NCBI GenBank assembly: GCA_902597545.1
Contig: CACJYD010000005.1
Span: 5,420-69,419 of the forward strand
DNA length: 64,000 nucleotides
Source: an uncultured Bacteroidota bacterium
Lineage (GTDB): Bacteria; Bacteroidota; Bacteroidia; Flavobacteriales; Flavobacteriaceae
Reading direction: 5' to 3'
Both the position numbers and the translations under genes were made by a program. The notes beneath the pieces were generated by a model. That model was not told the origin of the DNA, searched no databases, and saw only the letters and a list, made by a program, of their open reading frames with translations. Below, in pieces: positions 7,854-31,762 of the stretch. The stretch's first letter is position 1, and each line of letters opens with the position of its first letter.

Positions 7854-7861
7854 TATATTTG
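7854..7861 (+). promoter_or_regulatory. candidate -7 promoter box (TATATTTG)
   Basis: Exact TAnnTTTG match 13 nt upstream of the ATG at 7875. A TTG lies 18 nt further upstream (7833-7835). This supports the 7875 start rather than 7845. Confidence 0.35.
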
Positions 7862-7874
7862 TTTTGAATTTGTA

Positions 7875-8489: not shown

Positions 8490-8506
8490 TTTATTTCACC
8501 TAAATT

Positions 8507-9484: not shown

Positions 9485-9514
9485 ATTACTAATTTATTAA
9501 ATAGTTGAATTGAT

Positions 9515-10725: not shown

Positions 10726-10727
10726 AA

Positions 10728-12326: not shown

Positions 12327-12347
12327 TAATTAAAACCCTTTATAATA

Positions 12348-12379
12348 AAAGAAAGAGCAACTGCTGTTGCTCTTTCTTT
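12348..12379 (-). terminator. rho-independent terminator downstream of the TonB-dependent receptor
   Basis: Perfect 14-bp stem AAAGAAAGAGCAAC/GTTGCTCTTTCTTT with a 4-nt loop. On the minus strand it runs into the T-rich sequence TTTTATTAT. It lies 52 nt after the receptor stop. Confidence 0.7.
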
Positions 12380-12430
12380 AGTTTCTGTCTGTTATTCAAT
12401 TATAAATTGATAACAAATAATCTTAGAGTT

Positions 12431-14923
12431 TTAGAATTGATATTTTAAAGATGCAACAGCAGATGTTCCAATCTCAGGCATACCACTATAAACTCTATAT
12501 TTTTTACCAAGTAGGTTACTTACATTTACTCCAAGTTGAGTTTTCTTACTAAACTTGTATCCAAAATGTGCATCCCATACAGTTCTTTTTGGAACGAATC
12601 CACTATACCATCCTTGATTCGCTGTAAAAGAATTTTGATATCTCATAGATAATCCACCAGAGAAACCTTTAACTGGGTAATAACTCATACCTGCTTTAAC
12701 TCTGTGTTTAGGAGTATTTAGATTGTAAGTAGAACTTCCAGTTTCATCTTCTCCTATATCTTCTTTTTCAAAAAAGTTTTGAGATAACCATGAGTAATTC
12801 GCATAAAATGAAATATTATCAGTTGCTGCGTATTCTGTTGAAACATCTGCACCATAAAATTCTATTTCACCAAAGTTTTTGTACCCAACGTTGATAGGAC
12901 CTCTCATGAATGTTTGATCTGAGTTAACAATTCCTACAGGAGCACCAGTAAGTGCTGTATATCCAGTTGCGAATCCATTACCCATTATTTGTCCTAATAA
13001 TTGAGCAAGTAAACTTCCACCAAGCGATCTCCCAAATGTAAATCCAAGTGCATCAGCAATATCAGTTGCCGCAGAAGCTGGTAATTGAGCAAAAGGACTA
13101 ATTATTTCAAGCGCTGAAAAATTTTCTTTTGTTTGTCTGTAAACATCAACACCAACTTTCCATTTACCTAACTCAGCTTTGTATCCAATCTCGTATGTTG
13201 TTTCAGTTCCAATAGATGCAGTATCAGTCGGTTCGAGATTTGTGTTGTTACCAACAAGATCAACAGGTATAACAAAACTGTTAGCTATAATCGAACTCCA
13301 AACGGTAGGACTTTGCAAAAATGCTGGTACATTAACAAATAGTCCAACCACTGACTGAGATAATGCTGGAATCATTTGTGGAAGCAATCCTAAGTATATA
13401 GAAAATAAATCCATTCCAAGTCCTTGGTACCATACAGGATTTAAAGCTTGAATTTGATCAATTCCTGGAATTGCCCATGTTACATATGGATTGTTAAAAG
13501 TTTGTTGAGTGGCATTACCAGCTATGTGATTAGGTATACCCCAACTAAAACCTAAATGATCAGCAAACATCGTTTGAGCATTACTACTAGTAGTTGCCTG
13601 GCTAGCTGTTAATCTTATTGAGCTAGTTGGACTAGTTTTAAAAATTAAAGAAGCTTTTGGAGCAAAAGCACCTTCGTTGATGTTAGTATACTGATCGTAT
13701 CTACCTCCAAGAATTAAATTAACATTATCAGAGATTGAAGTGTTAGTTTGAAAATAAGCACCATAAACTCTCATCTCAGATCCATCATTTCTACCAAATA
13801 ATCCACCAGCAGTCATTTCTTCCGGTGTTGATGCTTGCGCATTCCAGTTAGTATTAAATGATGAAAGTTTGTGATCTAAACCAAGGCTAACATCTGTATT
13901 TCCAAGGGTTAGGTCATACTGTAATTGAGCTTGACTTTCAGTAATATCATTAGTATTCTTAAATGTATTGTTTTGAGTTGTTCTGTAGTAGTAGCCCTGA
14001 TCTTCAGCCTCAAATGGAGATTCGCTTTGACTGTAGCTATACTGTGCAGTTAAATTACCACTTTTAGCTTTTAGGTTAAAAAAGTGATTTTGGTTGTTTT
14101 CAAAAGCCTCACCATAAAACTCGCTCCATGATAAACCTTCTCTTCCATTGACACCAACTTGAGCAGTTACTTCAACATCTGAGGATGGTCTGAAGTATAG
14201 AGTTGCATCAACATTGTAGCCTGTAGCTTTTTCAAGTAATTGTCCACCAGTTTGCAATGCAGTTGTTTCATCAATTTCATACTCTCCATTTTCACTATAT
14301 CTTGCATTAATTTTATATCCAAATGTACCACTATCATTTGCTGCTGCGTGTCTAACAGAAGCTTGAAAAATATCCCAGTTACCTTTACCAAGCATTGATT
14401 CCTGGTTTGCAAGGCCACCTGATGAAATTTCCATCGATGTTCCTGGATATTTAAAAGGGTCCTTTGACATAAAGTGAACAACACCAGAATTAGTGTAGGC
14501 ACCATATGCGGATGATCCTGTACCGCGAACAACTTCAATTTTTTCAAGATCTAATCCAGAAAGATTGGTATTTGCAGCATCAAATACTTGTAGTCCAATA
14601 GTAGATATTTGTCTACCATCTAGAAGTACAACTGTTGTTGTGTTAAAAACACTTGCACCGTCCCTAAGTGTAATGTTATATCTATTTGCACCTTGTCTGT
14701 CTAATGTAAGCCCAACAACATTGTCAAGTAGCTGAGTAACATTAATAGCTGGTCTATTCTCGATTGTTTTTGCATCAATCACTGTTGTAGATGAAGGAGC
14801 ATCTACAGCTTTTTCAGCTTTTTTTGATGCAGAAAAAACCATTTCTTCTTTTTCCTGAGCATTGACAAATAAAATACCAGAAAGAATAAAAAGAAAGCTT
14901 GATAGATAGAATTTAAGTTTCAT
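12431..14923 (-). CDS. TonB-dependent outer-membrane receptor (not SusC-type)
   Basis: 830 aa. Signal peptide, plug-domain motifs (TVIDAKTIENRPAINVTQLL, IEVVRGTGSSAYG) and a C-terminal beta-barrel ending in ...SLKYQF. No adjacent SusD-like gene. Confidence 0.92.
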   Translation of the reverse strand: MKLKFYLSSFLFILSGILFVNAQEKEEMVFSASKKAEKAVDAPSSTTVIDAKTIENRPAINVTQLLDNVVGLTLDRQGANRYNITLRDGASVFNTTTVVLLDGRQISTIGLQVFDAANTNLSGLDLEKIEVVRGTGSSAYGAYTNSGVVHFMSKDPFKYPGTSMEISSGGLANQESMLGKGNWDIFQASVRHAAANDSGTFGYKINARYSENGEYEIDETTALQTGGQLLEKATGYNVDATLYFRPSSDVEVTAQVGVNGREGLSWSEFYGEAFENNQNHFFNLKAKSGNLTAQYSYSQSESPFEAEDQGYYYRTTQNNTFKNTNDITESQAQLQYDLTLGNTDVSLGLDHKLSSFNTNWNAQASTPEEMTAGGLFGRNDGSEMRVYGAYFQTNTSISDNVNLILGGRYDQYTNINEGAFAPKASLIFKTSPTSSIRLTASQATTSSNAQTMFADHLGFSWGIPNHIAGNATQQTFNNPYVTWAIPGIDQIQALNPVWYQGLGMDLFSIYLGLLPQMIPALSQSVVGLFVNVPAFLQSPTVWSSIIANSFVIPVDLVGNNTNLEPTDTASIGTETTYEIGYKAELGKWKVGVDVYRQTKENFSALEIISPFAQLPASAATDIADALGFTFGRSLGGSLLAQLLGQIMGNGFATGYTALTGAPVGIVNSDQTFMRGPINVGYKNFGEIEFYGADVSTEYAATDNISFYANYSWLSQNFFEKEDIGEDETGSSTYNLNTPKHRVKAGMSYYPVKGFSGGLSMRYQNSFTANQGWYSGFVPKRTVWDAHFGYKFSKKTQLGVNVSNLLGKKYRVYSGMPEIGTSAVASLKYQF

Positions 14924-18919: not shown

Positions 18920-19711
18920 ATGAAAAAAACATTATTACTTTTTTTCCTATTTATCTTGGGATCGTGCTCTTACGAACACCCTGAGTATGAAGCTAATAAA
19001 AAATTAGCTGAAAAATGGGTTGAAACATTTGAAACTCAAAACATGGAGTTATGGGAAGAAGTTGTTTCTGAGGATGTTGTTGATGTTGCCCCGATGTACG
19101 GAATGGGTCAAATCGATTATGCAGCATCAAAGCAAATTGCAGAATTTTATGTTAACAGCTACACTGATGTTAAATTTAACAACCCAGTATGGTTACCTGG
19201 AATCGATACTCTTACAATGAAGCCAGATGGAAGTGTTAGAGCTTACGGAGTATGGACGGGAAAAAGCAAAACGACAGGAAGAACTTTCACCTTACCGTCA
19301 TATCATAATTTCGGATTTAAAGATGGTAAAATTATATCTACTGGAGAGTACTTTGATGCAACAGGTATGGTTAACGCCGTTGGTCCAGCGCAAAGAAATG
19401 TAGTTATTTTCACTGCTAAGGTTGCAAAAAAGAATATTGATAAATTTCAAGAGTTAATGGATTCGAAAGATGGTTTGACAATAACAAGAAATGCTGATGG
19501 ATGTACTCATCTTGAGGCTTTTTATAATGAAGAAAATGAAACATACTTTATTTATGAGTATTGGGATTCATATGAGCAGTATGAAACTTACCTTGACTGG
19601 AGATTCAATATAGAGGAACCTAGTTTTGTAGATAAAGTTATTCCTTTGGTAAAAGGTGGAGAGGCAGGAATGCAAGCTAATTATAACAATAAAAACTATA
19701 ATTTCTATTAA
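18920..19711 (+). CDS. lipoprotein, NTF2/SnoaL-like domain fused to a C-terminal ABM (Dabb) domain
   Basis: Lipobox LGSC. The N-terminal half has SnoaL-like motifs (WVETFETQNMELWEEVVSEDVVDV ... FGFKDGKIISTGEYFD). The C-terminal 100 aa has the ABM pattern (VVIFTAKV...HLEAFYNEENETYFIYEYWDSYEQYETYLDWR). Confidence 0.7.
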   Translation: MKKTLLLFFLFILGSCSYEHPEYEANKKLAEKWVETFETQNMELWEEVVSEDVVDVAPMYGMGQIDYAASKQIAEFYVNSYTDVKFNNPVWLPGIDTLTMKPDGSVRAYGVWTGKSKTTGRTFTLPSYHNFGFKDGKIISTGEYFDATGMVNAVGPAQRNVVIFTAKVAKKNIDKFQELMDSKDGLTITRNADGCTHLEAFYNEENETYFIYEYWDSYEQYETYLDWRFNIEEPSFVDKVIPLVKGGEAGMQANYNNKNYNFY

Positions 19712-19713
19712 TC

Positions 19714-20214
19714 ATGAAAAACTTATACTTAATTATATTAACAGCAGTCTTTTTAAGCTGCGAAACAACCACTGAAGTAAAATATGGAGGAATGTTTACT
19801 GGAGGTCAAAACTCTTATGATCTTCAACAAGGCTCCATTGAGTATGCTTCTATTATTAAAAATGTTGTTCTGGGATATGCAGATGGTAATTTTGAGGAAA
19901 TTATTGAACACTTTTCAGATTCAGTAGTCAGGATTGAACCGGGTAACAGATTTAAAGTTGCCCCTAGCATTGAAAGATGGGAAGGCTTTAGAGAAAATTT
20001 TGACTCAATCAATAGAAATTTAACTTCTGTTATGGCCGTAAAAGTTAATGATGGGATAACTTATGTGGATGCTCTCTTTAGTCAACAAGTGTTTAGAGAT
20101 TCAGAAGTTACTAGATCAAGAAACTTTGAAAGATATTGGATCAATCACGAAACAAATAAAATTGTGAATATTGCATTTGTAAGTGAAGAATATGGAGATG
20201 ATGACGAAGATTAA
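19714..20214 (+). CDS. NTF2/SnoaL-like lipoprotein, paralog 1
   Basis: 166 aa. Lipobox FLSC followed by ETTTEV. Also LGYADGNFEEIIEHFSDSVV and a C-terminal ERYWINHETNKIVNIAF. Acidic tail DDDED. Confidence 0.75.
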   Translation: MKNLYLIILTAVFLSCETTTEVKYGGMFTGGQNSYDLQQGSIEYASIIKNVVLGYADGNFEEIIEHFSDSVVRIEPGNRFKVAPSIERWEGFRENFDSINRNLTSVMAVKVNDGITYVDALFSQQVFRDSEVTRSRNFERYWINHETNKIVNIAFVSEEYGDDDED

Positions 20215-20226
20215 ATTATAAATTAT

Positions 20227-20730
20227 ATGAAAAAATTACTATTATTATTTTTAACTATTTCTTTTATTGGTTGTGAGACTAAAACTATAGAAGTTCCTGT
20301 TAAGGGTGGTGAAATTATGCTTGGCAAAAATAAAGGAAGTAAATTTTACATTGCACCAGACGAAAATGTTGATGTTGTAAAAAAACTCTTAAAATCATGG
20401 AATAATATGGACCCTGAAGGAATGTTTGAAGTTTTAGAGGATACCATCACATGGTGGGTTGCTACTGAAAAAAAACCTATTAAAGCTGATAAAGAATTTA
20501 TTAAAGAATATTTGAAATCTTATGATTCAATAAGCCAGGTTGTTCAGGGTTACATACCTCATCAATGGGAAGGACAACAGCATGTAGTTGTTTCAGTTGC
20601 ATCTAGAGAAAAAAAATATAAAAAAGATGGAACCTTTGAAGATGATAGATTATTTGAAAGGTTTTTTGTAAGAGACGGAAAAATATTTCAAGTACAAGCG
20701 TGGAGTGCAGACTGGTACACAAATGATTAA
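20227..20730 (+). CDS. NTF2/SnoaL-like lipoprotein, paralog 2
   Basis: 167 aa. Lipobox FIGC followed by ETKTIEV. C-terminal ERFFVRDGKIFQVQAW. Confidence 0.75.
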   Translation: MKKLLLLFLTISFIGCETKTIEVPVKGGEIMLGKNKGSKFYIAPDENVDVVKKLLKSWNNMDPEGMFEVLEDTITWWVATEKKPIKADKEFIKEYLKSYDSISQVVQGYIPHQWEGQQHVVVSVASREKKYKKDGTFEDDRLFERFFVRDGKIFQVQAWSADWYTND

Positions 20731-20751
20731 TTAAAATTTAAATTATAAACT

Positions 20752-21258
20752 ATGAAGAAAATTATAATATTAATTGTTTTCACTGCTTTCATGAGTTGTG
20801 AAACAAAAACAGTTGAAGTTGTAAAACCTGCTGGTGAGTGGCTTATGGGAAATTTTGAGGGAGATAAAATGATTCCTGGTCCTGATGAAGATGCTCAAGT
20901 TGCTATGGATGTGATTATGGGCTATGCTAATAAGGACTTTGAATTAATGATGGAGAGATCTGCAGATACAGTTATGTTTTTTCCTGAAAAGGGTGGAGAG
21001 CTTGTTCAGCTTGTAAAACCATTTGATGATTTTGTAGAATCTTTGCAAGAACCTTATGATTCTATTGTAAGAACTCCGTATAATGTTTATCCTTTACGAC
21101 CAGAAAGTTCTGATAATTTTACGATTGTAACTGTGCCTTTCACGGAAGTTAGATATGCCAAAGATGGCTCAGTTGAGAAGGAAAGAATTATAGAAAGATT
21201 TTGGGTTGTTGATGGTAAGGTAGTAAGAGTCAACAAATGGGCCGCTGAATTAAATTAA
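20752..21258 (+). CDS. NTF2/SnoaL-like lipoprotein, paralog 3
   Basis: 168 aa. Lipobox FMSC followed by ETKTVEV. Also MGYANKDFELMMERSADTVMFF and ERFWVVDGKVVRVNKW. Confidence 0.78.
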   Translation: MKKIIILIVFTAFMSCETKTVEVVKPAGEWLMGNFEGDKMIPGPDEDAQVAMDVIMGYANKDFELMMERSADTVMFFPEKGGELVQLVKPFDDFVESLQEPYDSIVRTPYNVYPLRPESSDNFTIVTVPFTEVRYAKDGSVEKERIIERFWVVDGKVVRVNKWAAELN

Positions 21259-21274
21259 ATTTAAACTATAGACT

Positions 21275-21775
21275 ATGAAAAAAATACTATTATTTATTAC
21301 TTTTTTAGCTTTAATAAGCTGTGAAACAAAAACTGTAGAAGTGGAAAAGTCAGCGGGTATGACGTACTATGGTGCAAACGAGGGTAAAAAATTTCAGTTT
21401 GGTTCAGATGAAATTGCTCAATTGGCAGTAGATGCTATTTTAGCTTATGCAGATGGTAATTTTGATTTTATGAATGAGATTTCTGCAGATACCGTTATGT
21501 TTTTTGAACCCTCAATGGGTAAACCAATAGCAGTAGTTAATCCTGCTAATGAATTCTTAACTCAAATTCAGTCGCCTTATGATTCAATTACAAGGTATAT
21601 ATTCAATGCTATTCCTTTGAAGAGAGAGGGTGATAATTATGAAACCGTAACTGTTTCCTTCAGAGAAAATAGATACAAAGATGGTGAAGTTGAAAAACTA
21701 AGAGTAGTTGATAAAATATGGTTCAGAGATGGTAAGTTTTTTAGAGTTAATCAATGGAATGGAATTATTGATTAA
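21275..21775 (+). CDS. NTF2/SnoaL-like lipoprotein, paralog 4
   Basis: 166 aa. Lipobox LISC followed by ETKTVEV. Also LAYADGNFDFMNEISADTVMFF and DKIWFRDGKFFRVNQW. Roughly 40% identical to paralog 3 by eye. Confidence 0.78.
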   Translation: MKKILLFITFLALISCETKTVEVEKSAGMTYYGANEGKKFQFGSDEIAQLAVDAILAYADGNFDFMNEISADTVMFFEPSMGKPIAVVNPANEFLTQIQSPYDSITRYIFNAIPLKREGDNYETVTVSFRENRYKDGEVEKLRVVDKIWFRDGKFFRVNQWNGIID

Positions 21776-21795
21776 ATTTGAAAAAATTTACAACT

Positions 21796-22326
21796 ATGAA
21801 AAAAATATTTATAATTACATTTTTAACAATTTTCACATTTGCATGTGAATCACCTGCTCCTGCTGAAAAGGAAGCTGAGAGAGCCCCTGGATTTTTAAGA
21901 ACACCTGATGGAGATGTCGCTGCCGATGATGCCAATCCTGAAAATCTAGATTTGTGGGATAAATATATTGAAGCTCACAACAATAGAGATCTTGATGCAA
22001 TTGCGTCTATGAACATTGACTCAACTCAGCAAATGGGAAGTTTTAAAATTATTGGCCCTGACGGATCTTTAATTGAAGGAACTGATACTCATATTGAATT
22101 TCTAAAAGGTTGGTTCGAAGCTGAAAATCCTACTTGGAATACATTTTTCTCGTACACAATGAAGGTTGAAAATCAGCCTGGAGAATGGGTTATTTCAGGC
22201 GCTCAAGTAAAAAAGACTGTCGATGGAGAAGAAGTCACATCATATGATGTTATCGATGCTTATATTGAAGAAGGAAAGATAGGTGCTTTTTGGGTATACA
22301 CTAGAGCTGAAGGTTCACAAGAATAA
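21796..22326 (+). CDS. NTF2/SnoaL-like lipoprotein, divergent paralog 5
   Basis: The ATG at 21796 (the listed TTG start at 21778 is also possible) gives MKKIFIITFLTIFTFAC. Also YIEAHNNRDLDAIASM and a C-terminal DAYIEEGKIGAFWVY. Confidence 0.72.
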   Translation: MKKIFIITFLTIFTFACESPAPAEKEAERAPGFLRTPDGDVAADDANPENLDLWDKYIEAHNNRDLDAIASMNIDSTQQMGSFKIIGPDGSLIEGTDTHIEFLKGWFEAENPTWNTFFSYTMKVENQPGEWVISGAQVKKTVDGEEVTSYDVIDAYIEEGKIGAFWVYTRAEGSQE

Positions 22327-22533: not shown

Positions 22534-24843
22534 ATGAAAAAAATTATTTTATTAATTATTGTATTAACTCTAGGTTCATGCAACAAGAATGAAGTAAAGT
22601 ATGTAAACAAAGAATATTCAATTGAAGTTAGACTAGATGATTTAATGTCAAGAATGACTCTTGAGGAAAAAGTTGCTCAAATGACACAATTTGTGGGGTT
22701 AAATTACATCACTGATGCGGACAGAAACATGACCGCAGAAGAAATTTTAAATAGCGACAGTAGAGCATCATATAGAGGATTATTAAAAAAGGATATTGCT
22801 CAAATGGTTGCAGATGGTAAAATAGGTTCATTTTTACATGTTTTAACAATGAGGGAAGCTAACAGACTTCAAGAATTAGCTCAAAAATCCAGACTAAAAA
22901 TACCTCTATTAATAGGCATTGATGCAATACATGGAAATGGAATGGTAGCAGGAACAACAGTCTATCCCTCACCAATATCATTGGCATCTACATTTAATGA
23001 AAATATTGTTTTTAAAATTGGTCAAGAAACTGCAAAAGAAGTTAGAGCACATGGATCTCATTGGGCATTTACACCTAATGTTGATGTATTAAGAGATCCA
23101 AGATGGGGTAGAGTTGGTGAAACGTTTGGTGAAGATCCTTATCTAGTTGGAAATTTTGGTGTTCAAATGATAAAAGGTTTACAATCAGACGACTTTAGTG
23201 GTTTTGATAATGTAATAGCATGTGCTAAACATTTTGTAGCTGGTTCTGAACCAGTCAATGGATTAAATGTATCCCCAATGGATATTTCTGAAAGGTCACT
23301 CAGAGAAATTTATTTAAAGCCTTTTAAAAGAGCTGTTGATGCTGGTGTCTATTCCGTTATGGCTGCTCATAATGAAATAAATGGAATTCCAGCTCATATG
23401 CATAAAGTGCTCCTCACAGATGTTATGAGAAATGAATTTGACTTTGAAGGGTTTTATGTTAGTGATTGGCTTGACATAAACCGAATAAATGTCCTACATA
23501 AAATTGCCAAGGATTTTAAGGAAGCAATTTATTATGCAGTTGACGCAGGAATGGATATGAATATGCATGGTCCAAACTTTTTAGAAAATGTTATTGAACT
23601 AGTTGAGGATGGAAAACTTGACATTAAAAGAATTGATGAATCTGCAAGAAAAATTTTATATGCTAAATTTAAATTAGGTCTTTTTGAGAATCCATTTGTT
23701 AGTCCTGATGACCTAGATGAAAACGTCTTCACTGAAGAACACAAAAGTACTGCTCTTGATGCCGCAAGAAAGTCTATAGTGTTATTAAAAAATGATGGAA
23801 TTCTCCCATTGAGTAAAAAAAGAGGAAAAAAAATATTGGTTACGGGTCCAAACTCTAATAATCACTCAGTTTTAGGTGATTGGGTTTTTGCTCAACCTGA
23901 GGATAATGTAATAACCATTTATGAGGGAATTAAAAAACTTGGGGATTCAAAAGGTTACCAGATTGATTTTCATGATTCGAATAGTGATATTAGATCTATT
24001 TCACAAAGTGATATAATTAAAACTGTAAACAAGGCTAAGAATTATGATCAAATCATTGTAGTAGTTGGAGATAACTCACAAAGAATATTAAAATCAAAAA
24101 GAACTGCAGGTGAAAATATGGGCAGAGCAAATCTAAATTTGGCAGGAAAGCAACTCGAGTTGGTACAAAGATTAAAGAAAATCAATAAAAATGTAATCGT
24201 GATATATGTAAATGGTAAACCAATCGCAGAGCCTTGGATTGACAATAATATTAGTGGCGTAATTGAGTCATGGGAATTAGGTAGTATGGCTGGACAGGCA
24301 GTAGCAGAAGTTGTTTTTGGTGATGTTAATCCTGGGGGTAAACTTCCTTTAACATTTCCAAGGAGTGTTGGTCAGTTACAAATGATATATAACCATAAAC
24401 CTTCTCAATATTTTCATAAATACGCTTTTGAAAAAGTAACACCTTTGTATCCTTTTGGTCATGGGCTGAGTTATTCAAAATTTAATTATTCAAATTTTGA
24501 GCTATCAAAAGATGATAATGAGGATTTGATTAACTTAAGTGTAGAAATTAAAAATGATAGTAATATTGCAGGTGATGAAGTAGTTCAACTTTACTTTAAT
24601 GATAGTTTTAGTTCAGTTACCAGACCTGTAAAAGAATTAGTTTCATATGAAAGAGTTTTCATAGAACCAGGTGAAACGAAGACTGTCAAATTAAAGGTTC
24701 CTATTGAAAATTTAGCATTTTATGATATTAACATGGTTTATTGTGTTGAAGAAGGAGAATTTGAATTTATGGTTGGTGGTTCTTCAGATTCAAAATTTCA
24801 TTTAAAAAAGTCAATTAAAATCGAAAATAGGTATGAATTTTAA
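22534..24843 (+). CDS. glycoside hydrolase family 3 lipoprotein (BglX-like beta-glucosidase / exo-glycosidase)
   Basis: 769 aa. Lipobox LGSC. GH3 motifs are GIDAIHGN, KHFVAGSEP and nucleophile region GFYVSDWLD. A C-terminal Fn3-like domain carries VVQLYFND. Confidence 0.9.
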   Translation: MKKIILLIIVLTLGSCNKNEVKYVNKEYSIEVRLDDLMSRMTLEEKVAQMTQFVGLNYITDADRNMTAEEILNSDSRASYRGLLKKDIAQMVADGKIGSFLHVLTMREANRLQELAQKSRLKIPLLIGIDAIHGNGMVAGTTVYPSPISLASTFNENIVFKIGQETAKEVRAHGSHWAFTPNVDVLRDPRWGRVGETFGEDPYLVGNFGVQMIKGLQSDDFSGFDNVIACAKHFVAGSEPVNGLNVSPMDISERSLREIYLKPFKRAVDAGVYSVMAAHNEINGIPAHMHKVLLTDVMRNEFDFEGFYVSDWLDINRINVLHKIAKDFKEAIYYAVDAGMDMNMHGPNFLENVIELVEDGKLDIKRIDESARKILYAKFKLGLFENPFVSPDDLDENVFTEEHKSTALDAARKSIVLLKNDGILPLSKKRGKKILVTGPNSNNHSVLGDWVFAQPEDNVITIYEGIKKLGDSKGYQIDFHDSNSDIRSISQSDIIKTVNKAKNYDQIIVVVGDNSQRILKSKRTAGENMGRANLNLAGKQLELVQRLKKINKNVIVIYVNGKPIAEPWIDNNISGVIESWELGSMAGQAVAEVVFGDVNPGGKLPLTFPRSVGQLQMIYNHKPSQYFHKYAFEKVTPLYPFGHGLSYSKFNYSNFELSKDDNEDLINLSVEIKNDSNIAGDEVVQLYFNDSFSSVTRPVKELVSYERVFIEPGETKTVKLKVPIENLAFYDINMVYCVEEGEFEFMVGGSSDSKFHLKKSIKIENRYEF

Positions 24844-25918
24844 ATTATATATAATCATCTTTTCAGTTTTTATCTCTTGTAATAACATTACAAATAATGA
24901 GGTAAATCCAAAAGTTATTGCCTACTACACTGGTAATGGAGAAACTATAAATGAATTTGATTTGATTGGTGTGGATCAAATTATATATAGTTTTTTACAT
25001 CTTAAAGGAAATGAATTAGCTATTGATAATGCAGCTGATAGTATTAGTTTGTTAGGTATTGTTGATCAGAAAAAAAAGTATCCAAACCTGAAAGTCTTGG
25101 TTTCACTTGGTGGATGGGGTGGATGTAAGACCTGTTCGGATGTATTTAATACTAAGGAAGGAAGAATTGATTTTGCAAAGTCTACTGCTAAAATAATTGA
25201 AGAATATAATGCAGATGGAATTGATTTAGATTGGGAATATCCTGCAATTCCAGGACCTCCAGGTCATGCTTTTAGAGATGAGGATAGAGATAATTTCACT
25301 GATTTAATTAAGCTACTTAGAGAATATATGAAACCAGATGACATTCTTAGCTTTGCTGCAGGTGGATTTAAAAGTTTTATTGATAAATCAGTCGACTGGG
25401 ATCAAGTTACACCACTTATTGATAATGTTAATCTTATGACTTATGATTTAATAGGTGGTTATTCAAAAGTAACTGGACATCATACTTCGCTTTACTCTAC
25501 CGAAAACCAAGAAAGATCAGGTGATTATGCTATACAATATTTAAAATCTAAAGGAGTTCCAGCAAACAAAATTGTACTAGGTGCAGCATTTTATGGAAGA
25601 ATTTATAAAGATGTTGCTAATGTTAATAATGGATTGTATCAAGCAGCAAATTTTAAAGGAGGAGTAAATCAAAATAACTTCAATGAAGTGACAAAAGATT
25701 TTGAGTTTTTTTGGGATGAAACTGCAAAAGCTCCATATGCATACGACAAAGAAAATCGGCTTTTCCTTACGTATGACAATCAAAAATCTATCGAACTAAA
25801 ATCAAAATATGTTAAAGACAACAATCTGCATGGAATAATGTTTTGGCAATTAATGAATGATAAAAAGAAAGATGGTTTGTTGAAGACTATGGTTGATGAA
25901 ATAAAGGCAATTCAATAG
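24833..25918 (+). CDS. glycoside hydrolase family 18 lipoprotein (chitinase / endo-beta-N-acetylglucosaminidase-like)
   Basis: 361 aa. Lipobox FISC. Intact GH18 catalytic motif DGIDLDWEYP, plus MTYDL and MFWQL. Overlaps the GH3 gene by 11 nt. Confidence 0.88.
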   Translation: MNFKLYIIIFSVFISCNNITNNEVNPKVIAYYTGNGETINEFDLIGVDQIIYSFLHLKGNELAIDNAADSISLLGIVDQKKKYPNLKVLVSLGGWGGCKTCSDVFNTKEGRIDFAKSTAKIIEEYNADGIDLDWEYPAIPGPPGHAFRDEDRDNFTDLIKLLREYMKPDDILSFAAGGFKSFIDKSVDWDQVTPLIDNVNLMTYDLIGGYSKVTGHHTSLYSTENQERSGDYAIQYLKSKGVPANKIVLGAAFYGRIYKDVANVNNGLYQAANFKGGVNQNNFNEVTKDFEFFWDETAKAPYAYDKENRLFLTYDNQKSIELKSKYVKDNNLHGIMFWQLMNDKKKDGLLKTMVDEIKAIQ

Positions 25919-25978: not shown

Positions 25979-26332
25979 GTGAGAAAGTTTACATTAATTT
26001 TTATTTTAATCCTCTTTTCATGTAGCAAAAACTCAGATGAAGTTACTTCTCCAGAATTACCAGATCCATACGTTCCTGTCAAGTTTGCTTCTTTTCAATA
26101 CTCAATGGGTGGTGTTTATGGTGGGTTAGTTAGATATACTCATAAAGATTATAGTTCTGGAAGTCATAATTACTGTACTTGCTCAGCTTGTAACAACTCA
26201 TTCAACACTGTTGATGAATTATACTATAACAAAAATAATGGAACCGTTAAGTTTAAAAATAATACAGACAGTGTGTATACTTACAGAAAGTTTGATTCAT
26301 CATGGACTTGTAGAAGATATGAAGAAATTTAA
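25979..26332 (+). CDS. small lipoprotein, unknown function
   Basis: GTG start. MRKFTLIFILILFSC lipobox. 117 aa with 4 additional Cys. Confidence 0.55.
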   Translation: MRKFTLIFILILFSCSKNSDEVTSPELPDPYVPVKFASFQYSMGGVYGGLVRYTHKDYSSGSHNYCTCSACNNSFNTVDELYYNKNNGTVKFKNNTDSVYTYRKFDSSWTCRRYEEI

Positions 26333-27471
26333 ATTTCTTTCTTCCAAAAGGCAATTCCACCAGCTTGTTTACCAACTTTAACTGAACTAACCAGCTCATA
26401 AGAATCAAGATCGATGACATCAACAATACCTGGTTCTCCTCCAATTCCTTCAACAGATATAAATGCATATTTGCTGTCAGATGAAATTGCAATACCGTGA
26501 GAAACACTTGTTGTATTCTTTATTATTGCTAACTCTTCTTTATTTTCAAGGTTCCAAATAGCAGTTTTACCTTCACTTTTTATAGTTCCAATCAGTAATT
26601 TTCCATTTGGCGTTATTTCTAAATTATAAGGACCTTTACCAGTTTTAAATCGATCAGAAACCTCCCATTTATCTAAATTAACTTCTATAACCTCATCAGA
26701 CCCATTGCCAGCTACATATGCAATGTTTTCCTGAGGGTGGGGGATGACCCATGTTGGTTTAACCATTGAATGTTTCATACCATCCATGGTATTCATCATG
26801 TTTTCTTTTTTATCATTAGACATCATTTTACCTTTCATATTATCATGATTCATCATTTTTCCATCCATCTTTTTATCATTCATCATCTTCTTTTCTAAAT
26901 TCAAAACCCTACTCACTTTAAGATCAAGTGCATCAATTTCAAAAAGTTCACCTGACATCATTGCAACAGAATATTGGAATAATCCATCAGGTGATAATCT
27001 TGAACCATGAGGCATCGAGCCAGTAGTAATCTTAGTTATCTCAGTCATTGTTTCTGGATCAACTACAGAAACATTTGATGGTTTCATACTTCCATGTAAA
27101 TTAAAATTCACACAATATAAAAATCCCGTAATGTTTGAAATTTCCATTGAAGCAGGAAATAATCCTAATGTAGTTCTTGCTACTGCTTGGTTAGTTTCAG
27201 TTGAGTATTTAACCAAAGTTCCAAATGGATTTCCATGAGCTAGTGATATATACCAAAAATCTCCGCTAGGATCAACTGTAATTCCGTGAGGGCCTTCAAT
27301 TTCAGCAAACATAAACCCTACATCAATTCTCTCTGCTTCAACTGCTTCTTTTCCATCAAATTTTATGAGGGAAACTGTATCTTCAGATTCAGAGGCAACA
27401 TAAGCATAATAATTCTGACCAATTGTGAAAAATGGAATTAATAATATCGATAATAATAACTTTTTAGACAT
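26329..27471 (-). CDS. exported YVTN / cytochrome-d1-like beta-propeller protein with a methionine-rich insert
   Basis: Signal peptide MSKKLLLSILLIPFFTIGQ. Repeated blade motifs GPHGITVDPSGDFWY, MPHGSRLSPDGLFQY, GPYNLEITPNGKLL and VSHGIAISSDSKYAF. Residues 193-236 hold 13 Met. Confidence 0.8.
   Translation of the reverse strand: MSKKLLLSILLIPFFTIGQNYYAYVASESEDTVSLIKFDGKEAVEAERIDVGFMFAEIEGPHGITVDPSGDFWYISLAHGNPFGTLVKYSTETNQAVARTTLGLFPASMEISNITGFLYCVNFNLHGSMKPSNVSVVDPETMTEITKITTGSMPHGSRLSPDGLFQYSVAMMSGELFEIDALDLKVSRVLNLEKKMMNDKKMDGKMMNHDNMKGKMMSNDKKENMMNTMDGMKHSMVKPTWVIPHPQENIAYVAGNGSDEVIEVNLDKWEVSDRFKTGKGPYNLEITPNGKLLIGTIKSEGKTAIWNLENKEELAIIKNTTSVSHGIAISSDSKYAFISVEGIGGEPGIVDVIDLDSYELVSSVKVGKQAGGIAFWKKEI
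26794..26895 (-). repeat. imperfect ~30-nt (10-codon) tandem repeats encoding the Met-rich insert
   Basis: Plus-strand units start with CATCAT at 26794, 26821, 26851 and 26881. Units 26821-26850 and 26851-26880 match at 23 of 30 positions. They encode KMMNHDNMKG / KMMSNDKKEN-type decapeptides. Confidence 0.7.
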
Positions 27472-27473
27472 AA

Positions 27474-29552
27474 CTATTCAATTGGTGGACTAGCTAATAT
27501 TTGAAAGAAATCTAGTAGATCTTCAGCACCTAATGCTTCTTTCAAAGTCTGATCACTTGCAAACTGATTTGTATTTGAATTATCCTTTTTCTTATCTAAT
27601 AACTTTAAAGCACCAATGCCAGTATAAAAGTCAGAATAAAAGATATTTCCTTTATAGTATTGAGCACCCCAGAGCATCGTCGAATTAGGAACATATCCAT
27701 CAGGATGTCCTGTCCCATATTTAGCTATTTCTCTCCCTTGTTTATATAAATCACCCATTAGTTCTCCACTAATATCAACAACCCTCACTCCAGCTGTGTA
27801 CATACCAATGTAAAGTACATCATCCTCAACCCAATAATTGTGGGATCCATGACCAGGGACTTCATATCTTGCTACTTCAACTGGGTTTTTTAAATCTGTG
27901 AAGTCAATAAAGTGTAAATAACCTGCAGTCTCATTGAAGGTGTTCCCATCAACACCCTCAGGAAATATTTCATCTCCCATTATGACATAAAATTTTCCAG
28001 TCGATTTACTTTTAAAAGGAAAAGCGGCATGGTTTCCACCTGAATCATATCTGTAGTTTCCAATTTCTACTGGATTAGAAGGAGATCCCCCTGCAATACC
28101 ATTTCCAACATCAACTAAATAAACACCTTGTTTCCAGTTTGAGGAATATGCTATTCCATCTTCAATCCAAACATCATGTATGGCAGAACCTGGTTCATCA
28201 ACTTCAAAAAATCCAACTTCTTTTGGGTTTTTTGGATCTTCAATATTAATTACGTAGTATTTGGCTGGGTTCGCAAATGCGTTTAATGCATATACATGAT
28301 TTTCATATATAAAAATATTGTGAACACCACCAGTTAAATTTGTTGTATACTCAGAAATAATTTCAGCATTTGATGGATCAGTAACGTCAATCAGTATAAT
28401 TCCATTTTTCCTTTTTGAAGATGCCTCTCTTGAAATAACACATAATTTCCCATCTTTTGAAACTTTCACATCATTAACAATTCTAGCATCTACTTGAATA
28501 CTATCAATTTTTTTGATATCTGTTGGATCGGTTACATCCCAAAAATATGCAGTGCCATCAGATCCCCATGTTCCAGAGACACCATAATCTTTTCCATCTG
28601 CGCCCTCAAAAAACCAAGCGTCTGAGGTTCTTCTATCAAATACTTCCCCCAAACCGAGTTTAACTATTTCTTTTTGAATATCTCTGTCAACTGCTTTAAC
28701 TTGAATAGATGAGTTGGTATTACCGAATGATGCATTGATTACATATTCACCAGCTATATCAGCAACAAATTTACCCTTTTCTGAAATAAGTCCTGAAGCA
28801 GTTGTACTTTTATTAGTGGAAACTCCAGAAAAAGAAAATTTTGGTTCTATTCCACTCAATACATTCCCTTTTTTATCTTTAAGTTGTGCTGAAAGATTAA
28901 TGACATCCCCAGTTTTAATTACACCTTTAGAGTCAGAACTCAGATCAATTGATACAACTGGGTTATTAAAAACATTAATTTTTTTGGATACACTTTGTCC
29001 ATCAAAAGATGCACTTATTACAGAACTACCTTTTTTGATTGCCTTTAAGTTACCCAAATCATCAACTTTAATTATTGCCGGATCAGATGACTCATATTTA
29101 AAATTTAAATCAGATTTTTCTTTACCGTCAGCATATTTTGCAACCGAATTAACTTCAGCAAAATTACCTACATAAAGCTCACCATTTACATTAAAGTCTA
29201 TACTTGAAGCTTTAGGAAATTTAACTCCAACCAAAAATGTTTGACTCAATCTTTTACCACCTTCCATGCCAACACAAACTGCAACAATTTCAAATATACC
29301 TGGCTCACTTGCAACGAAAAGTCCAGTTGGATCTATTGCTGCACCTACATTGAAAGCTCCATCTTTTTGATAATAAATCAGTCGTTCACAAGTGGTTTTA
29401 TTCCCGTCTAAATCAGAAATATAAGATTCAGCTTGAAAAGTATCCCCAATATTTAATATTAAACCATCTAAATTGGATTCTATACTAAGATTTTGAGAGT
29501 GATTTAGTTGTAAGCTAAAAATAGCTATAATAATAAGTATCAATTTTTTCAT
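27474..29552 (-). CDS. secreted Big_2 (Ig-like) + LVIVD-repeat beta-propeller protein, paralog A
   Basis: 692 aa with a signal peptide. N-terminal Ig-like modules (IKTGDVINLSAQLKDKKGN...). The C-terminus has LVIVD-type pentads: IILIDVTDP, YYVINIEDP, VYLVDVGNG, LHFIDFTDL and VRVVDISGE. Confidence 0.82.
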   Translation of the reverse strand: MKKLILIIIAIFSLQLNHSQNLSIESNLDGLILNIGDTFQAESYISDLDGNKTTCERLIYYQKDGAFNVGAAIDPTGLFVASEPGIFEIVAVCVGMEGGKRLSQTFLVGVKFPKASSIDFNVNGELYVGNFAEVNSVAKYADGKEKSDLNFKYESSDPAIIKVDDLGNLKAIKKGSSVISASFDGQSVSKKINVFNNPVVSIDLSSDSKGVIKTGDVINLSAQLKDKKGNVLSGIEPKFSFSGVSTNKSTTASGLISEKGKFVADIAGEYVINASFGNTNSSIQVKAVDRDIQKEIVKLGLGEVFDRRTSDAWFFEGADGKDYGVSGTWGSDGTAYFWDVTDPTDIKKIDSIQVDARIVNDVKVSKDGKLCVISREASSKRKNGIILIDVTDPSNAEIISEYTTNLTGGVHNIFIYENHVYALNAFANPAKYYVINIEDPKNPKEVGFFEVDEPGSAIHDVWIEDGIAYSSNWKQGVYLVDVGNGIAGGSPSNPVEIGNYRYDSGGNHAAFPFKSKSTGKFYVIMGDEIFPEGVDGNTFNETAGYLHFIDFTDLKNPVEVARYEVPGHGSHNYWVEDDVLYIGMYTAGVRVVDISGELMGDLYKQGREIAKYGTGHPDGYVPNSTMLWGAQYYKGNIFYSDFYTGIGALKLLDKKKDNSNTNQFASDQTLKEALGAEDLLDFFQILASPPIE

Positions 29553-29576
29553 TTTTTTAAGTTTTAGTAATTAATA

Positions 29577-31619
29577 TTAATCAACATATTGATTTGTCAT
29601 AGAGTTATTTGGCTTTAAGTCAGAAACTTTAGCAACACCAATCCCTGTATTAAAATCAGAGTAAAATACATGACCTTTGTAAAGTTGAGCACCCCAAACC
29701 ATTGTATCATTAGGGATATATCCATCCGATGTTCCAGTTAAAATATAACCAATTTCTCTTCCTTGCTTGTAAAGATCGCCAAGTAAATCGCCGCTAATGT
29801 CAACAATTCTTACACCACCAGTATACATGCCGACATAAAGTATATCGTTATCTATCCAATAATTATGAGATCCATGTCCAGGAAGCTCATATCGGGCTAT
29901 TTCAATTGGATTTTTTAGATCAGAAAAGTCAACAAAATGTAAAAATCCAGCAGTTTCATTTGTGCCATTTGGATTTACACCATTAGGAAATATTTCATCA
30001 CCCATTACGGCATAGAATTTTCCTGTTGATTTACTTTTAAATGGAAAGGTTGCGTGATTTGCCCCACTGTCATAAGTGTAGTTTCCGAACGCTACAGGAT
30101 TTTCTGGTGTTCCTCCTGCTATTCCATTTCCCACATCAACAAGATAAACTCCATCTCTCCAGTTAGAAGAGTATGCTATTCCATCCTCAACCCAGACATC
30201 GTGTATTGATTGACCTTCTTTTCCTATTTCAAACATACCGACCTCATATGGATTAGCTGGATCCTCTATGTTGAGAATATAATATTTTTGACCAGCACTA
30301 AGTGCATAAACATGTTTTTCGTCAATAAATAAATTATGAACACCACCGGTCAAATTCTTTGTGTATTCTTTAATAATTTTAACGTCATAAGGATTTGTTA
30401 CATCTATTATTATAATTCCATTTTTTCTGTTTGAAGCTCCCTCTCTACTAATAATAGCAATTTTTCCATTTGGGGATACTTTAACATCATTCACTGTTCT
30501 TGCATCAACTTGAACGCTATCAATTTTTTTAATATCAGACGGATTTGTAACATCCCAAAAGTATGCAGTACCATCCGCACCCCATGTTCCAGTTACAGCA
30601 TAATCTCTTTTATCAACACCTTCAAAAACCCAGAAGTCAGATGTATGTTTGTCGTTAACCGATCCTGCACCTATTTTTTTTACTTCTCTTTGAACTTTCC
30701 TTTGGAAGACATTAACAACTTTTGATTTTGATGCATTTCCAAATGATGCGGTTAAAATATATTTTCCAGGAACATCTCCAACAAATCTACCATCTTGAAG
30801 AATTAATCCAGATGCTGTATTACTTTTATCAAAAGATTTTCCTGTAAATGAAAATTTAATGTTTACATCATTGACTAGGTTTCCTCTCTTATCAAATGCA
30901 TCAGCTTTTAAGTTTATAACATCACCAGTTCTAATTTTTTCTGGTTTTTCTGCAATACTCAAATCAATATTATTAACATTATTCTTTTTTATATTGATAG
31001 TTTTTGAAGATTTCACACCATCAAAAACCACATTAATTGTAGCAGATCCAGATTTTACAGCTAATACGTTGTTTGAATCATCAATTTCTAATTTATCATT
31101 GGATGATGAAATTGAAAATTCTAGGTTAGAAAAATATCTTTCAGCATTATCAGATTTCCAATAATCAATATCTCTAACAACATCCATTTGGTCAGTGATT
31201 TTATATGAGAGTGGTATATAATTATCAGTGTAAATTGTTTCATTTCCTGTCAATATTTCAATGCTTTTAACTTTAGGATAATTTATTGTGACATTAAAAG
31301 TTCTTCGAATACTTTTTCCACTTCCATAGCAAATTGCAACAACCTCATGATATCCTGGCTCAACGGCTTTAATTGTTCCTTTGGCTCTGTTAAACTCCAT
31401 AACCTTTCCAGTCATGCTAAATGCACCTTTTTTATAGTAATATATAACCCTTTCACAATCAAATTTATTTCCTTGATTATCAACTGAATATGTCGTTGGT
31501 TTGTAAGTTTGTCCTATATCTAATCTTAATTCATCTAAATCAGATATTACACTTTTTTCCTGTGCAACCATTGTTACTGATAGCAAGCAGAAAATCGGTA
31601 TCAAAAATCTTTTTTTCAT
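29577..31619 (-). CDS. secreted Big_2 (Ig-like) + LVIVD-repeat beta-propeller protein, paralog B
   Basis: 680 aa with a signal peptide and the same architecture as paralog A. The C-terminal ~390 aa are roughly two-thirds identical to paralog A by eye (for example GTAYFWDVT.P.DIKKIDS.QVDAR.VNDVKVS). Confidence 0.82.
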   Translation of the reverse strand: MKKRFLIPIFCLLSVTMVAQEKSVISDLDELRLDIGQTYKPTTYSVDNQGNKFDCERVIYYYKKGAFSMTGKVMEFNRAKGTIKAVEPGYHEVVAICYGSGKSIRRTFNVTINYPKVKSIEILTGNETIYTDNYIPLSYKITDQMDVVRDIDYWKSDNAERYFSNLEFSISSSNDKLEIDDSNNVLAVKSGSATINVVFDGVKSSKTINIKKNNVNNIDLSIAEKPEKIRTGDVINLKADAFDKRGNLVNDVNIKFSFTGKSFDKSNTASGLILQDGRFVGDVPGKYILTASFGNASKSKVVNVFQRKVQREVKKIGAGSVNDKHTSDFWVFEGVDKRDYAVTGTWGADGTAYFWDVTNPSDIKKIDSVQVDARTVNDVKVSPNGKIAIISREGASNRKNGIIIIDVTNPYDVKIIKEYTKNLTGGVHNLFIDEKHVYALSAGQKYYILNIEDPANPYEVGMFEIGKEGQSIHDVWVEDGIAYSSNWRDGVYLVDVGNGIAGGTPENPVAFGNYTYDSGANHATFPFKSKSTGKFYAVMGDEIFPNGVNPNGTNETAGFLHFVDFSDLKNPIEIARYELPGHGSHNYWIDNDILYVGMYTGGVRIVDISGDLLGDLYKQGREIGYILTGTSDGYIPNDTMVWGAQLYKGHVFYSDFNTGIGVAKVSDLKPNNSMTNQYVD

Positions 31620-31651: not shown

Positions 31652-31687
31652 AAAAAAAAGGGAATCAAGTTTGACTCCCTTTTTTTT
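31652..31687 (-). terminator. hairpin flanked by A8/T8 tracts (bidirectional in form) just 3' of tRNA-Arg
   Basis: GGGAATCAA-gt-TTGACTCCC at 31660-31679 has 9 bp with one mismatch. Eight A precede it and eight T follow it, so either strand reads as hairpin plus U-tract. Confidence 0.7.
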
Positions 31688-31688
31688 G

Positions 31689-31762
31689 TGACCTCGGCAG
31701 GATTCAAACCTACAACCTTCTGAGCCGTAATCAGATGCACTATTCAGTTATGCTACGAGGCC
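31689..31762 (-). tRNA. tRNA-Arg (anticodon ACG)
   Basis: The reverse complement folds by hand into a cloverleaf. Acceptor stem is GGCCTCG/CGAGGTC, D-stem GCAT/GTGC, and anticodon stem TCTGA/TCAGA. The anticodon loop is TTACGGC, the variable loop is 5 nt, and the T-stem is GTAGG/CCTGC. 74 nt, CCA not encoded. Confidence 0.88.

Follow-up and report, generated by a model that had tools for sequence, protein, structure and literature searches.

Positions 26329 to 31619 of a 64,000-nucleotide (nt) stretch of DNA from an uncultured member of the Flavobacteriaceae (assembly GCA_902597545.1, contig CACJYD010000005.1, positions 5,420 to 69,419; the whole stretch is referred to here as the window) carry three minus-strand genes, designated A, B and C, whose products are exported beta-propeller proteins. 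It is proposed, with a probability of about 0.5, that the locus encodes a periplasmic binuclear metallohydrolase (A, with B as its duplicate) and a dedicated metal-binding partner propeller (C). The genes are spaced as an earlier reading made from the letters of the DNA (the sequence-only reading) had stated, with 24 nt between A and B and 2 nt between B and C, but that reading took all three genes as the unit, whereas the unit that is conserved is the pair A→C. The features of the locus are as follows.

29577-31619, minus strand: gene A, 680 amino acids (aa); signal peptide, three immunoglobulin (Ig)-like domains of the Big_2 type and a seven-bladed propeller of the LVIVD/Sb-PTE type; the conserved ortholog of the module
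30705..31559, minus strand: residues 21-305 of A, three Ig-like beta-sandwich domains (AlphaFold 2 (AF2) strands, profile matches to solved Big_2 structures)
29625..30683, minus strand: residues 313-665 of A, seven-bladed propeller (AF2, invariant residues, alignment with Sb-PTE)
27474-29552, minus strand: gene B, 692 aa; lineage-specific paralog of A with the same architecture (open reading frame (ORF), comparison of homologs)
26329-27471, minus strand: gene C, 380 aa; exported seven-bladed propeller of the YVTN/YncE type (Pfam YNCE, Foldseek match to 1l0q)
26764..26895, minus strand: residues 193-236 of C, disordered Met-rich insert between blades (predicted local distance difference test (pLDDT) score of about 30)

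The conserved A-C pair

A scan with C of one genome per species of the Genome Taxonomy Database (GTDB) gave 68 loci, distributed over Flavobacteriaceae, Cryomorphaceae, Marinoscillum and other Cytophagales, Saprospiraceae, Rhodothermales, Planctomycetota, Gemmatimonadales and Acidobacteria. The gene just upstream of C is A-type in 63 of these loci, which span four or more phyla; most of the other five end at a contig edge, and one, from the Rhodothermales (L058), has C without A. The reverse scan, in which metagenome contigs were searched with the propeller of A, gave at least 481 confirmed stretches and 80 metagenome loci, 77 of them informative. Among the matches listed, C is directly downstream of an A-type gene in 74 of these 77 loci. 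Two of the three exceptions have B between A and C, and the third (L147) is a B-type gene (4146-6236) that stands alone, with neither A nor C beside it. The gap from A to C in the genome loci has a median of 2 nt and the two genes overlap in 16 of 63 pairs, which fits translational coupling. The co-occurrence of LVIVD and YVTN genes that the sequence-only reading had suggested examining is found for the pair and not for the trio.

B-type genes are restricted to close relatives of the window (L001-L005, L007, L008 and L068). Between the same genomes B orthologs are about 60% identical, compared with 83-92% for A orthologs, and B is a lineage-specific duplicate of A that evolves faster than A. 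The C-terminus of the 692-aa protein is an extra conserved tail (...LLDFFQILASPPIE). This B-type tail (...LKEALGAEDLLDFFQILASPPIE; ...LLELFEILASPPIE; 27474-27590, minus strand; also in L147:4146-6236, L004 and L007) is missing from A-type proteins, the C-termini of which are short and unconserved.

When all ORFs within 10 kb of the 68 loci were clustered, no other gene was found to be co-conserved across lineages. No transporter, cytochrome or regulator is co-conserved with the pair in the window or in the 68 related loci, in keeping with the earlier description of a self-contained extracytoplasmic module. More distant Big_2 plus LVIVD relatives of A (32-40% identity) have no C-type neighbor.

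Homology of A and B to a binuclear phosphotriesterase

Sb-PTE of Sphingobium sp. TCM1 is described in the title of its structural report as having a binuclear metal center in a seven-bladed propeller (Mabanglo et al. 2016, cited in PMC11656708), and it carries out the first step by which tris(2-chloroethyl) phosphate, or TCEP, is degraded (PMC5460133). A narrow profile of A retrieved a single propeller from the PDB sequences, which was Sb-PTE (5HRM, 5IOJ; E=0.005), and a search with the single sequence retrieved nothing. With a profile built from 64 representatives of the relatives of A's propeller (26-54% identity), 5hrm/5ioj was matched at E=6.7e-14 (HMMER), and Sb-PTE remained the only significant propeller match of A among PDB sequences. 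Comparison of family against family with hhalign gave a probability of 97.2% and E=4.5e-11 at about 20% identity; a narrow hhalign comparison (alignment A4 against one sequence), which gave a probability of 48% and a shifted register, was superseded by the family-against-family runs. Judged by these profiles, the A/B family is demonstrably homologous to Sb-PTE, the haloalkylphosphorus hydrolase of Sphingobium. The statement in the sequence-only reading that LVIVD proteins have no established biochemical function thus overlooks Sb-PTE, which is homologous to the A/B family and with which A and B would share five of six presumed metal-ligand positions, and the outcome which that reading named as able to overturn it, assignment of the proteins to a characterized enzyme family, has in part come about through this homology.

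A 98.9%-identical full-length Sb-PTE sequence was recovered from a plasmid of Sphingobium xenophagum (L155:1135-2886). It has E, H, H, H, E and H at positions 201, 258, 317, 389, 407 and 475, which we take to be the metal ligands of Sb-PTE (E201, H258, H317, H389, E407 and H475), and all six residues are kept in a Novosphingobium homolog that is about 40% identical, while the nearby H204 is not. Residues H258, H317, H389, E407 and H475 of Sb-PTE align to H428, H473, H522, E542 and H585 of A, respectively. MAFFT, end-to-end hhalign (325 columns, probability 96.3%) and HMMER/hhalign on the N-terminal half agree on this alignment, and local motifs agree within it ('VMGDE' with 'VGAAE' and 'GSH' with 'GSH').

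The five aligned residues of A are invariant in 71 A/B sequences and 83-92% conserved in relatives down to 26% identity, and B keeps their equivalents (H411, H459, H508, E528 and H571). Most of the conservation across the 71 A/B-type sequences lies in the propeller, where it falls on the residues that open the presumed innermost strand of each blade, an assignment made from the repeat pattern and the order of the AF2 strands. The invariant propeller residues are T326/S327/D328, N377/D378, H428/N429, H473/D474, H522, E542, H585/N586 and W642/Q645.

A and B resemble Sb-PTE in having a seven-bladed propeller with LVIVD-like pentad-Asp strands and in having His and Glu residues, the presumed ligands, at the starts of the innermost strands of consecutive blades, with five of the six positions identical in the end-to-end alignment. 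The sole Pfam match of Sb-PTE is to LVIVD, sub-threshold as it is in B. Sb-PTE differs from A in that it lacks Ig-like domains and a C-type neighbor, has larger loops and a longer propeller (463 versus 353 residues) and has a bridging glutamate, Glu201, that is not conserved in A; it also has disulfides. It further differs in being plasmid-borne in soil sphingomonads and acting on man-made triesters. Near-identical (96-99%) Sb-PTE genes, annotated only as 'hypothetical protein', are present on plasmid p3 of S. xenophagum (L155, 18111-19862) and on four other sphingomonad plasmids. These plasmids are conjugative or mobilizable, and the copy on L155 adjoins IS6100. A copy on a Novosphingobium replicon, 46% identical, has no annotation at all.

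Export signals and architecture

The N-termini of A, B and C consist of a Lys-rich stretch followed by a hydrophobic stretch, which bears out the earlier description of all three products as exported. AF2 renders this segment as a helix (residues 2-16 in A and 2-10 in C). The segment ends at a glutamine, which is Q20, invariant in 60 homologs, in A and B and Q19, at least 90% conserved, in C. An N-terminus that ends at a conserved glutamine is a pattern of signal peptidase I substrates of Bacteroidota, and the sequences of A, B and C fit export through that peptidase. Neither a conserved lipobox cysteine nor a C-terminal domain for the type IX secretion system (T9SS) was found in A, B or C, so a periplasmic location is most likely.

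The AF2 model of A, computed from a 60-sequence alignment, has a pLDDT of 86.8. It consists of three beta-sandwich modules (residues 23-113, 117-211 and 217-305) and, in residues 313-665, 28 strands in seven groups of four, that is seven blades, mostly with pLDDT above 85. The sequence-only reading had foreseen this arrangement of about three Ig-like modules followed by a propeller. The hydrophobic-pentad-Asp motifs that it quoted were likewise all found, and all of them sit in B, which, with FWDVTDP and IFYSDF, has seven such strands. Overall identity between A and B is 56%; it is higher for the propeller, at 71%, than for the Ig part, at 43%, which diverges fast. Foldseek comparison of full-length A with the PDB was uninformative, since Ig domains and generic WD40 propellers top the list.

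In an exhaustive search with the propeller of A, the representatives of 7,016 clusters (at 50% identity) were matched at E<1e-3 and those of 1,620 clusters at E<1e-10. Among the 64 distant relatives used for the profile, Pfam LVIVD is found in 61 (best E 1e-24) and Big_2 in 32, and the family profile of A matches solved Big_2 structures (LigA/LigB and a teneurin-like protein) at E 1e-20 to 1e-9. By these profile matches the LVIVD and Big_2 assignment of A and B is sound at the level of the family. The seven hydrophobic-pentad-Asp strands are shared with the proteins of Pfam LVIVD and of TIGR04312, neither of which carries a functional annotation. Methanethiol oxidase was rejected as an identity for B, the MtoX score of 13.6 bits against a cutoff of 650 being noise.

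Protein C, a His-lined propeller with a Met/His-rich loop

AF2 models C with a pLDDT of 81.9 as a propeller of seven blades in which an insert, residues 197-231, is disordered, so that the blade count, which the sequence-only reading had left to structure prediction, is seven in C as it is in A. C passes the Pfam model YNCE (PF21783; 31.5 bits, cutoff 27.1) and falls just under the TIGR02276 repeat model (26.9 bits, cutoff 27.85). Foldseek ranks the archaeal YVTN S-layer domain 1L0Q first (E about 5e-17, template modeling (TM) score 0.71). Further matches are the beta subunit of quinohemoprotein amine dehydrogenase, YncE, lactonases, hydrazine synthase beta, BtuG and cytochrome cd1, and a profile of C orthologs gives the same fold relatives. 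Of the earlier assignment of C to YVTN or cytochrome d1-type propellers, the YVTN part is upheld by YNCE and 1l0q. The cytochrome d1 part (PF02239) was rejected; the score of 29.2 bits exceeds the cutoff of 25.5, but only residues 296-374 of C and positions 10-83 of the 368 in the profile match. No cytochrome or nir genes were found near C in the window or among the annotated neighbors.

Seven histidines are 92-100% conserved in 64 C orthologs (H62, H79, H126, H155, H234, H245 and H325), and the conserved methionines outside the loop in the same orthologs are M109, M129, M142, M153, M171 and M172. In three blades the inner strand starts with a P/S-x-G motif whose x is one of the histidines H62, H155 and H325; in ordinary YVTN repeats the residue at this position is not fixed. 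Propeller topology predicts that H62, H155 and H325 look toward the axis and lie on the side of the interstrand B-C loops, which carry H79 and H126.

The insert of C in the window has 13 Met in 44 residues, compared with 8 in the other 336 residues of the protein (binomial p=2e-11). Across orthologs the insert is 3-52 aa long and has a Met plus His content of 32%, versus 4.2% in the rest of the protein. Its repeats differ by lineage, with MDHSKM five times in L013, MDHQGM, MKSMDG four times in L005 and a K/N/M-rich sequence in the window. The Met/His-rich loop occurs only in orthologs from Bacteroidota and Rhodothermales, and in the four orthologs from outside the Bacteroidota (Planctomycetota, Gemmatimonadales and Acidobacteria) it is short and Met-poor. 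The loop is therefore an elaboration and not the core of C's function. The metal or redox role that the sequence-only reading drew from the Met-rich insert accordingly keeps its metal-related side, which is plausible, but the insert is not a constant of the family.

C is like the YVTN/YncE-type propellers (1L0Q, Escherichia coli YncE, amine dehydrogenase beta and hydrazine synthase beta) in fold and repeat type, with Foldseek E values of 5e-17 to 1e-12, TM scores of 0.56-0.71 and profile E values of 1e-23 to 9e-12. Several of these propellers are non-catalytic partner subunits of periplasmic enzymes, which is the role proposed here for C. C differs from them in having His at the P-x-G of three blades, four more conserved His and a Met/His-rich insert, and in having as its partner an LVIVD propeller and not a cytochrome or quinoprotein. 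Neither the His set nor the insert is visible in the aligned YVTN/YncE-type propellers, and we know of no propeller of this type that has either. The loop is like the Met/His segments of CopA/PcoA, CopB, CueO and CusF in being a low-complexity, fast-evolving run of M/H/D/S/K/G repeats in an exported protein. In contrast to those proteins, C is a propeller and not a cupredoxin or OB-fold protein, and no copper-resistance genes lie nearby. A CopA/PcoA-type copper-resistance protein was rejected as an identity for C, there being no cupredoxin domain match and only the Met/His composition in common. L-NosZ (NF052460), or a Cu-S enzyme of that kind, was also rejected, since the score is 45.4 bits against a cutoff of 700, the match covers positions 55-254 of the 480 in the model, and all of C is propeller, with no cupredoxin CuA domain. 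NosZ is absent from the PDB sequence matches of C and from its 50 best Foldseek matches.

Proposed function and alternatives

Based on these observations, the core of the locus would be the translationally coupled pair A→C, acting as a two-component metalloprotein module in the periplasm. The catalytic part would be A, along with the recently arisen duplicate B: a seven-bladed LVIVD-type propeller carried on three Ig-like domains. Four histidines and one glutamate (H428, H473, H522, E542 and H585) would ring the mouth of the central tunnel of A, and the bridging carboxylate, which is missing from this set, could be supplied by D378 or D474. Because of the homology to Sb-PTE and the retention of the ligand ring, A most likely binds two divalent metal ions and hydrolyzes an ester-type substrate by means of a metal-activated water; a phosphoester is the leading guess for that substrate, by analogy with Sb-PTE. 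The three P/S-His-Gly motifs of C (H62, H155 and H325) would point at its axis and be joined by the four other conserved His, and in Bacteroidota the fast-evolving Met/His-rich loop would leave the propeller on the same face. It is most likely that C binds metal ions, and it may capture metal and deliver it to A, act as a metal buffer for A or be joined to A in a complex.

Several points weigh against this proposal. The metal ligands of Sb-PTE are presumed ones, corroborated by residue types and conservation only, and metal binding by A is a prediction from sequence. The bridging Glu201 of Sb-PTE aligns to T375 of A, which is not a carboxylate, although the invariant D378 lies three residues on. 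The highest-scoring local hhalign alignment is one blade off (score 87 versus 76), and only two His ligands coincide in it; either register would nevertheless put a ring of His and a carboxylate at the tunnel mouth, since both propellers are closed seven-bladed rings. A and B also score poorly on curated models. For Pfam LVIVD (PF08309, cutoff 20.2 bits) B reaches 17.9 bits (E=0.0019) and A gives no match at E up to 0.1, and for Pfam Big_2 (PF02368, cutoff 22.8 bits) B reaches 14.0 bits, A having only a sub-cutoff match to Big_1 (17.5 bits). The best NCBIfam match, choice-of-anchor B (TIGR04312, cutoff 100 bits), gives 56.1 bits for A and 64.7 for B. The LVIVD and Big_2 identity given in the sequence-only reading therefore holds for the family but is not reached by A and B individually, and A and B further differ from LVIVD and TIGR04312 proteins in having no C-terminal sorting signal of the choice-of-anchor type. 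The fold matches of C are generic YVTN propellers with no known metal site. Two relatives of A (P0388 and P0405) have the full ligand set but no C partner, so C would not be generally required for this enzyme type and would be an accessory of one clade. Finally, the link between the loop of C and the site of A is weak, because Met-rich loops suggest Cu(I), which is unexpected for a hydrolytic center of four His and a carboxylate.

It is possible, though unlikely, that the locus is a copper-handling module concerned with homeostasis and not hydrolysis, in which C would be a periplasmic Cu(I)/Cu(II) binder (a sponge, chaperone or cuprous-oxidase-like protein) and A would be copper-dependent or copper-protected. 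The strong Met/His enrichment of the loop, with its MDHSKM-, MDHQGM- and MKSMDG-type repeats, and its resemblance to the Met/His octapeptide repeats of CopA/PcoA/CopB and to the Mets motifs of CusF and Ctr1 argue for such a module, as do the seven conserved His and six conserved Met of C outside the loop and the KatG or AhpC/TSA-type redoxin that adjoins the pair in some lineages. However, no CopA/CusABC/CueR-type gene, multicopper oxidase or HMA-domain protein was found near the pair in any annotated lineage, C has no cupredoxin domain, and the pair is kept in Planctomycetota, Gemmatimonadales and Acidobacteria although the loop is missing there. The conserved site of A, moreover, fits a hydrolytic binuclear center and not a known copper site. 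Alternatively, A, B and C could be non-catalytic envelope proteins of an adhesin-, S-layer- or scaffold-like nature whose propellers serve as binding platforms. This is distinctly unlikely, even though it was in cell-surface proteins of archaea and bacteria that the LVIVD and YVTN repeats were originally described (PMC2447325) and annotation of repeats of these kinds usually takes this line. The best Foldseek matches of the Ig part of A and of C (1l0q) are S-layer proteins, and databases name the homologs of A, B and C only 'hypothetical' or 'Ig-like domain-containing'. On the other hand, no anchor in the form of a lipobox, a T9SS C-terminal domain or a choice-of-anchor-type signal is present, TIGR04312 being sub-cutoff. 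The Ig domains drift, and what is conserved gathers where the inner strand of each blade begins, which is how an active site behaves; in the end-to-end alignment the conserved positions coincide with the presumed metal ligands of an enzyme.

Two further alternatives, like the metallohydrolase, would make the locus enzymatic. A redox enzyme pair, with C holding a copper or tetrapyrrole cofactor (as kin of L-NosZ, thiocyanate dehydrogenase or cytochrome d1) or A being an oxidase that produces H2O2, is very unlikely. C has weak matches to the NCBIfam models of L-NosZ (45 bits) and hydrazine synthase beta (43 bits) and to Pfam Cytochrom_D1 (29 bits), but the first compares with a cutoff of 700 and the last spans 79 of 368 profile positions. 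Although the seven conserved His of C equal the number of CuZ ligands in NosZ, C is only 380 aa long and has no cupredoxin/CuA domain, no nos accessory gene or cytochrome lies nearby, NosZ is not among the PDB sequence matches or the 50 best Foldseek matches listed, and thiocyanate dehydrogenase appears only at E 0.1-0.3. The presence of KatG upstream in seven loci, and of a protein with TPR and AhpC/TSA domains at the operon end in a Planctomycetota locus, would suit a redox function. Glycan processing is a similarly improbable role, in which A and B would be propeller lyases, hydrolases or esterases acting on decorated marine polysaccharides as accessories of neighboring glycoside hydrolases. 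Big_2 domains are common in secreted glycan-active enzymes, a family 3 glycoside hydrolase (GH3) gene follows C directly on the same strand (31-42 nt) in several Marinoscillum-type loci, and GH3 and family 18 (GH18) genes lie beside the module in the lineage of the window. Yet GH3 is nearby in only 14 of the 68 loci, the GH3 and GH18 genes of the window are on the opposite strand and convergent with the module, a SusC/SusD pair is found beside the module neither in the window nor among the annotated neighbors, and no CAZy-type family was matched.

Surroundings of the locus

Two features lie upstream of gene A in the window.

31652..31687, minus strand: A8-hairpin-T8 terminator-like element between tRNA-Arg and gene A (sequence scan)
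31688..31762, minus strand: tRNA-Arg(ACG), upstream of gene A on the same strand; context, outside the module (tRNA call)

The terminator-like element is 32 nt from the ATG of A, and no TAnnTTTG box of the Bacteroidetes type occurs within these 32 nt, as the sequence-only reading had noticed in placing the module close to the tRNA-Arg terminator with no promoter box between them. The sole TAnnTTTG match (TAGGTTTG) in about 380 nt upstream of A is at 31705-31712 (minus strand), in the T-arm of tRNA-Arg about 90 nt before the ATG, and is probably coincidental. A scan for sigma-70-type promoters gave 30 sites compared with 32 expected from shuffled sequence, that is no excess; the G+C content of the window is 30%. 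Single-cell genomes of uncultured marine Bacteroidetes (L001-L003) are almost identical to the window, with 89-99% identity at the protein level. Only in the lineage to which the window belongs (L001-L003, L005-L008 and L068) does the tRNA-Arg lie upstream of the module, and because of this confinement it is regarded as local synteny and read-through from it was rejected as a feature of the module.

On the other side, a 117-aa ORF (25979-26332, plus strand) with a lipoprotein-like N-terminus (MRKFTLIFILILFSC) and no Pfam match converges on C and overlaps its 3' end by 4 nt. The window's GH3 (22534-24843) and GH18 (24833-25918) genes, which share an overlap of 11 nt, are on the opposite strand from the module, beside it and convergent with it. 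Farther away, five consecutive ORFs of 166-182 aa occupy 19714-22326 on the plus strand (19714-20214, 20227-20730, 20752-21258, 21275-21775 and 21778-22326) and are preceded by a gene for a SnoaL_2 plus ABM protein (18920-19711). The first and last of the five have no Pfam match, and related loci also carry ORFs of similar size that cluster with those of the window. The run and its recurrence look like a tandem paralog array of unknown function.

Twenty annotated neighbors in distant lineages are functionally unrelated and include an M1 peptidase, MFS transporters, an Mg-chelatase-like ATPase, a thiolase, DnaE, PadR and MarR. None of the 20 recurs across lineages, and neighbors were therefore rejected as clues to function. 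A cysteine-desulfurase-like gene (TIGR01976, 369 bits, above cutoff) is next downstream of C in 14 loci from three lineages, usually at 12-70 nt, and KatG (catalase-peroxidase) is directly upstream of the pair in seven loci. The order KatG, A, C and TIGR01976 protein forms a same-strand run in L033, L035, L040, L042, L043, L045 and L047 (about 5650-12750). The Marinoscillum-type loci with GH3 31-42 nt downstream of C on the same strand are L009, L010, L011, L027, L038, L039 and L044. These associations with desulfurase-like, KatG and GH3 genes are partial and are not taken as evidence of function. In a metagenome-assembled genome from the Planctomycetota (L061:11020-13485), a gene for an 821-aa protein with TPR and AhpC/TSA (redoxin) domains begins 4 nt before the stop codon of C and lengthens the operon.

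Significance

The domains of A, B and C are themselves of known kinds. What is new is the near-obligate coupling of A and C, the connection of a large LVIVD subfamily to the ligand set of a solved metalloenzyme, and the His-lined partner propeller with its Met/His-rich loop. A literature search found no study of the A-C pair, and in the LVIVD literature that it returned the repeats are read as 'surface repeat' or 'attachment' elements only. The LVIVD repeat, whose definition dates from 2004, still carries the annotation of a surface repeat with no known function. To our knowledge, no description exists of a catalytic propeller that is tied obligately to another propeller, His-lined and bearing a Met/His-rich loop. 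For A, a 'hypothetical Ig-like protein' has become a metalloenzyme hypothesis with five named residues, which is directly testable, and the LVIVD subfamily concerned comprises the 1,620 clusters found at E<1e-10.

The pair is very common in surface-ocean Bacteroidota, where single clusters at 90% identity contain hundreds of metagenome sequences, in addition to the confirmed stretches counted above. Carriers that can be cultured include Roseivirga, Catalinimonas and Fulvivirgaceae strains. Given this abundance, any activity of the pair would matter for marine nutrient or metal cycling. A more specific possibility, which is put forward as speculative and unlikely to hold in full, is that A and C form a previously unrecognized periplasmic system of abundant, mostly uncultured marine Bacteroidota for the hydrolysis of organophosphate esters (phosphodiesters, phosphotriesters or both). 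A and B would be its catalytic binuclear propellers, and C would be a new type of dedicated propeller, either a metallochaperone or a metal buffer, by which the site is loaded or protected where seawater is poor in metal. Experiments with phosphorus-limited seawater have shown consumption of organophosphate esters and a rise in the activity of Flavobacteria, and no enzymes beyond those of Sphingobium were known (PMC6338803); this consumption is circumstantial support for such a substrate of A. If the proposal is true, the LVIVD repeat family would gain its first general biochemical role, and the still unexplained consumption of these esters when phosphorus limits seawater would have candidate enzymes in the A-type proteins.

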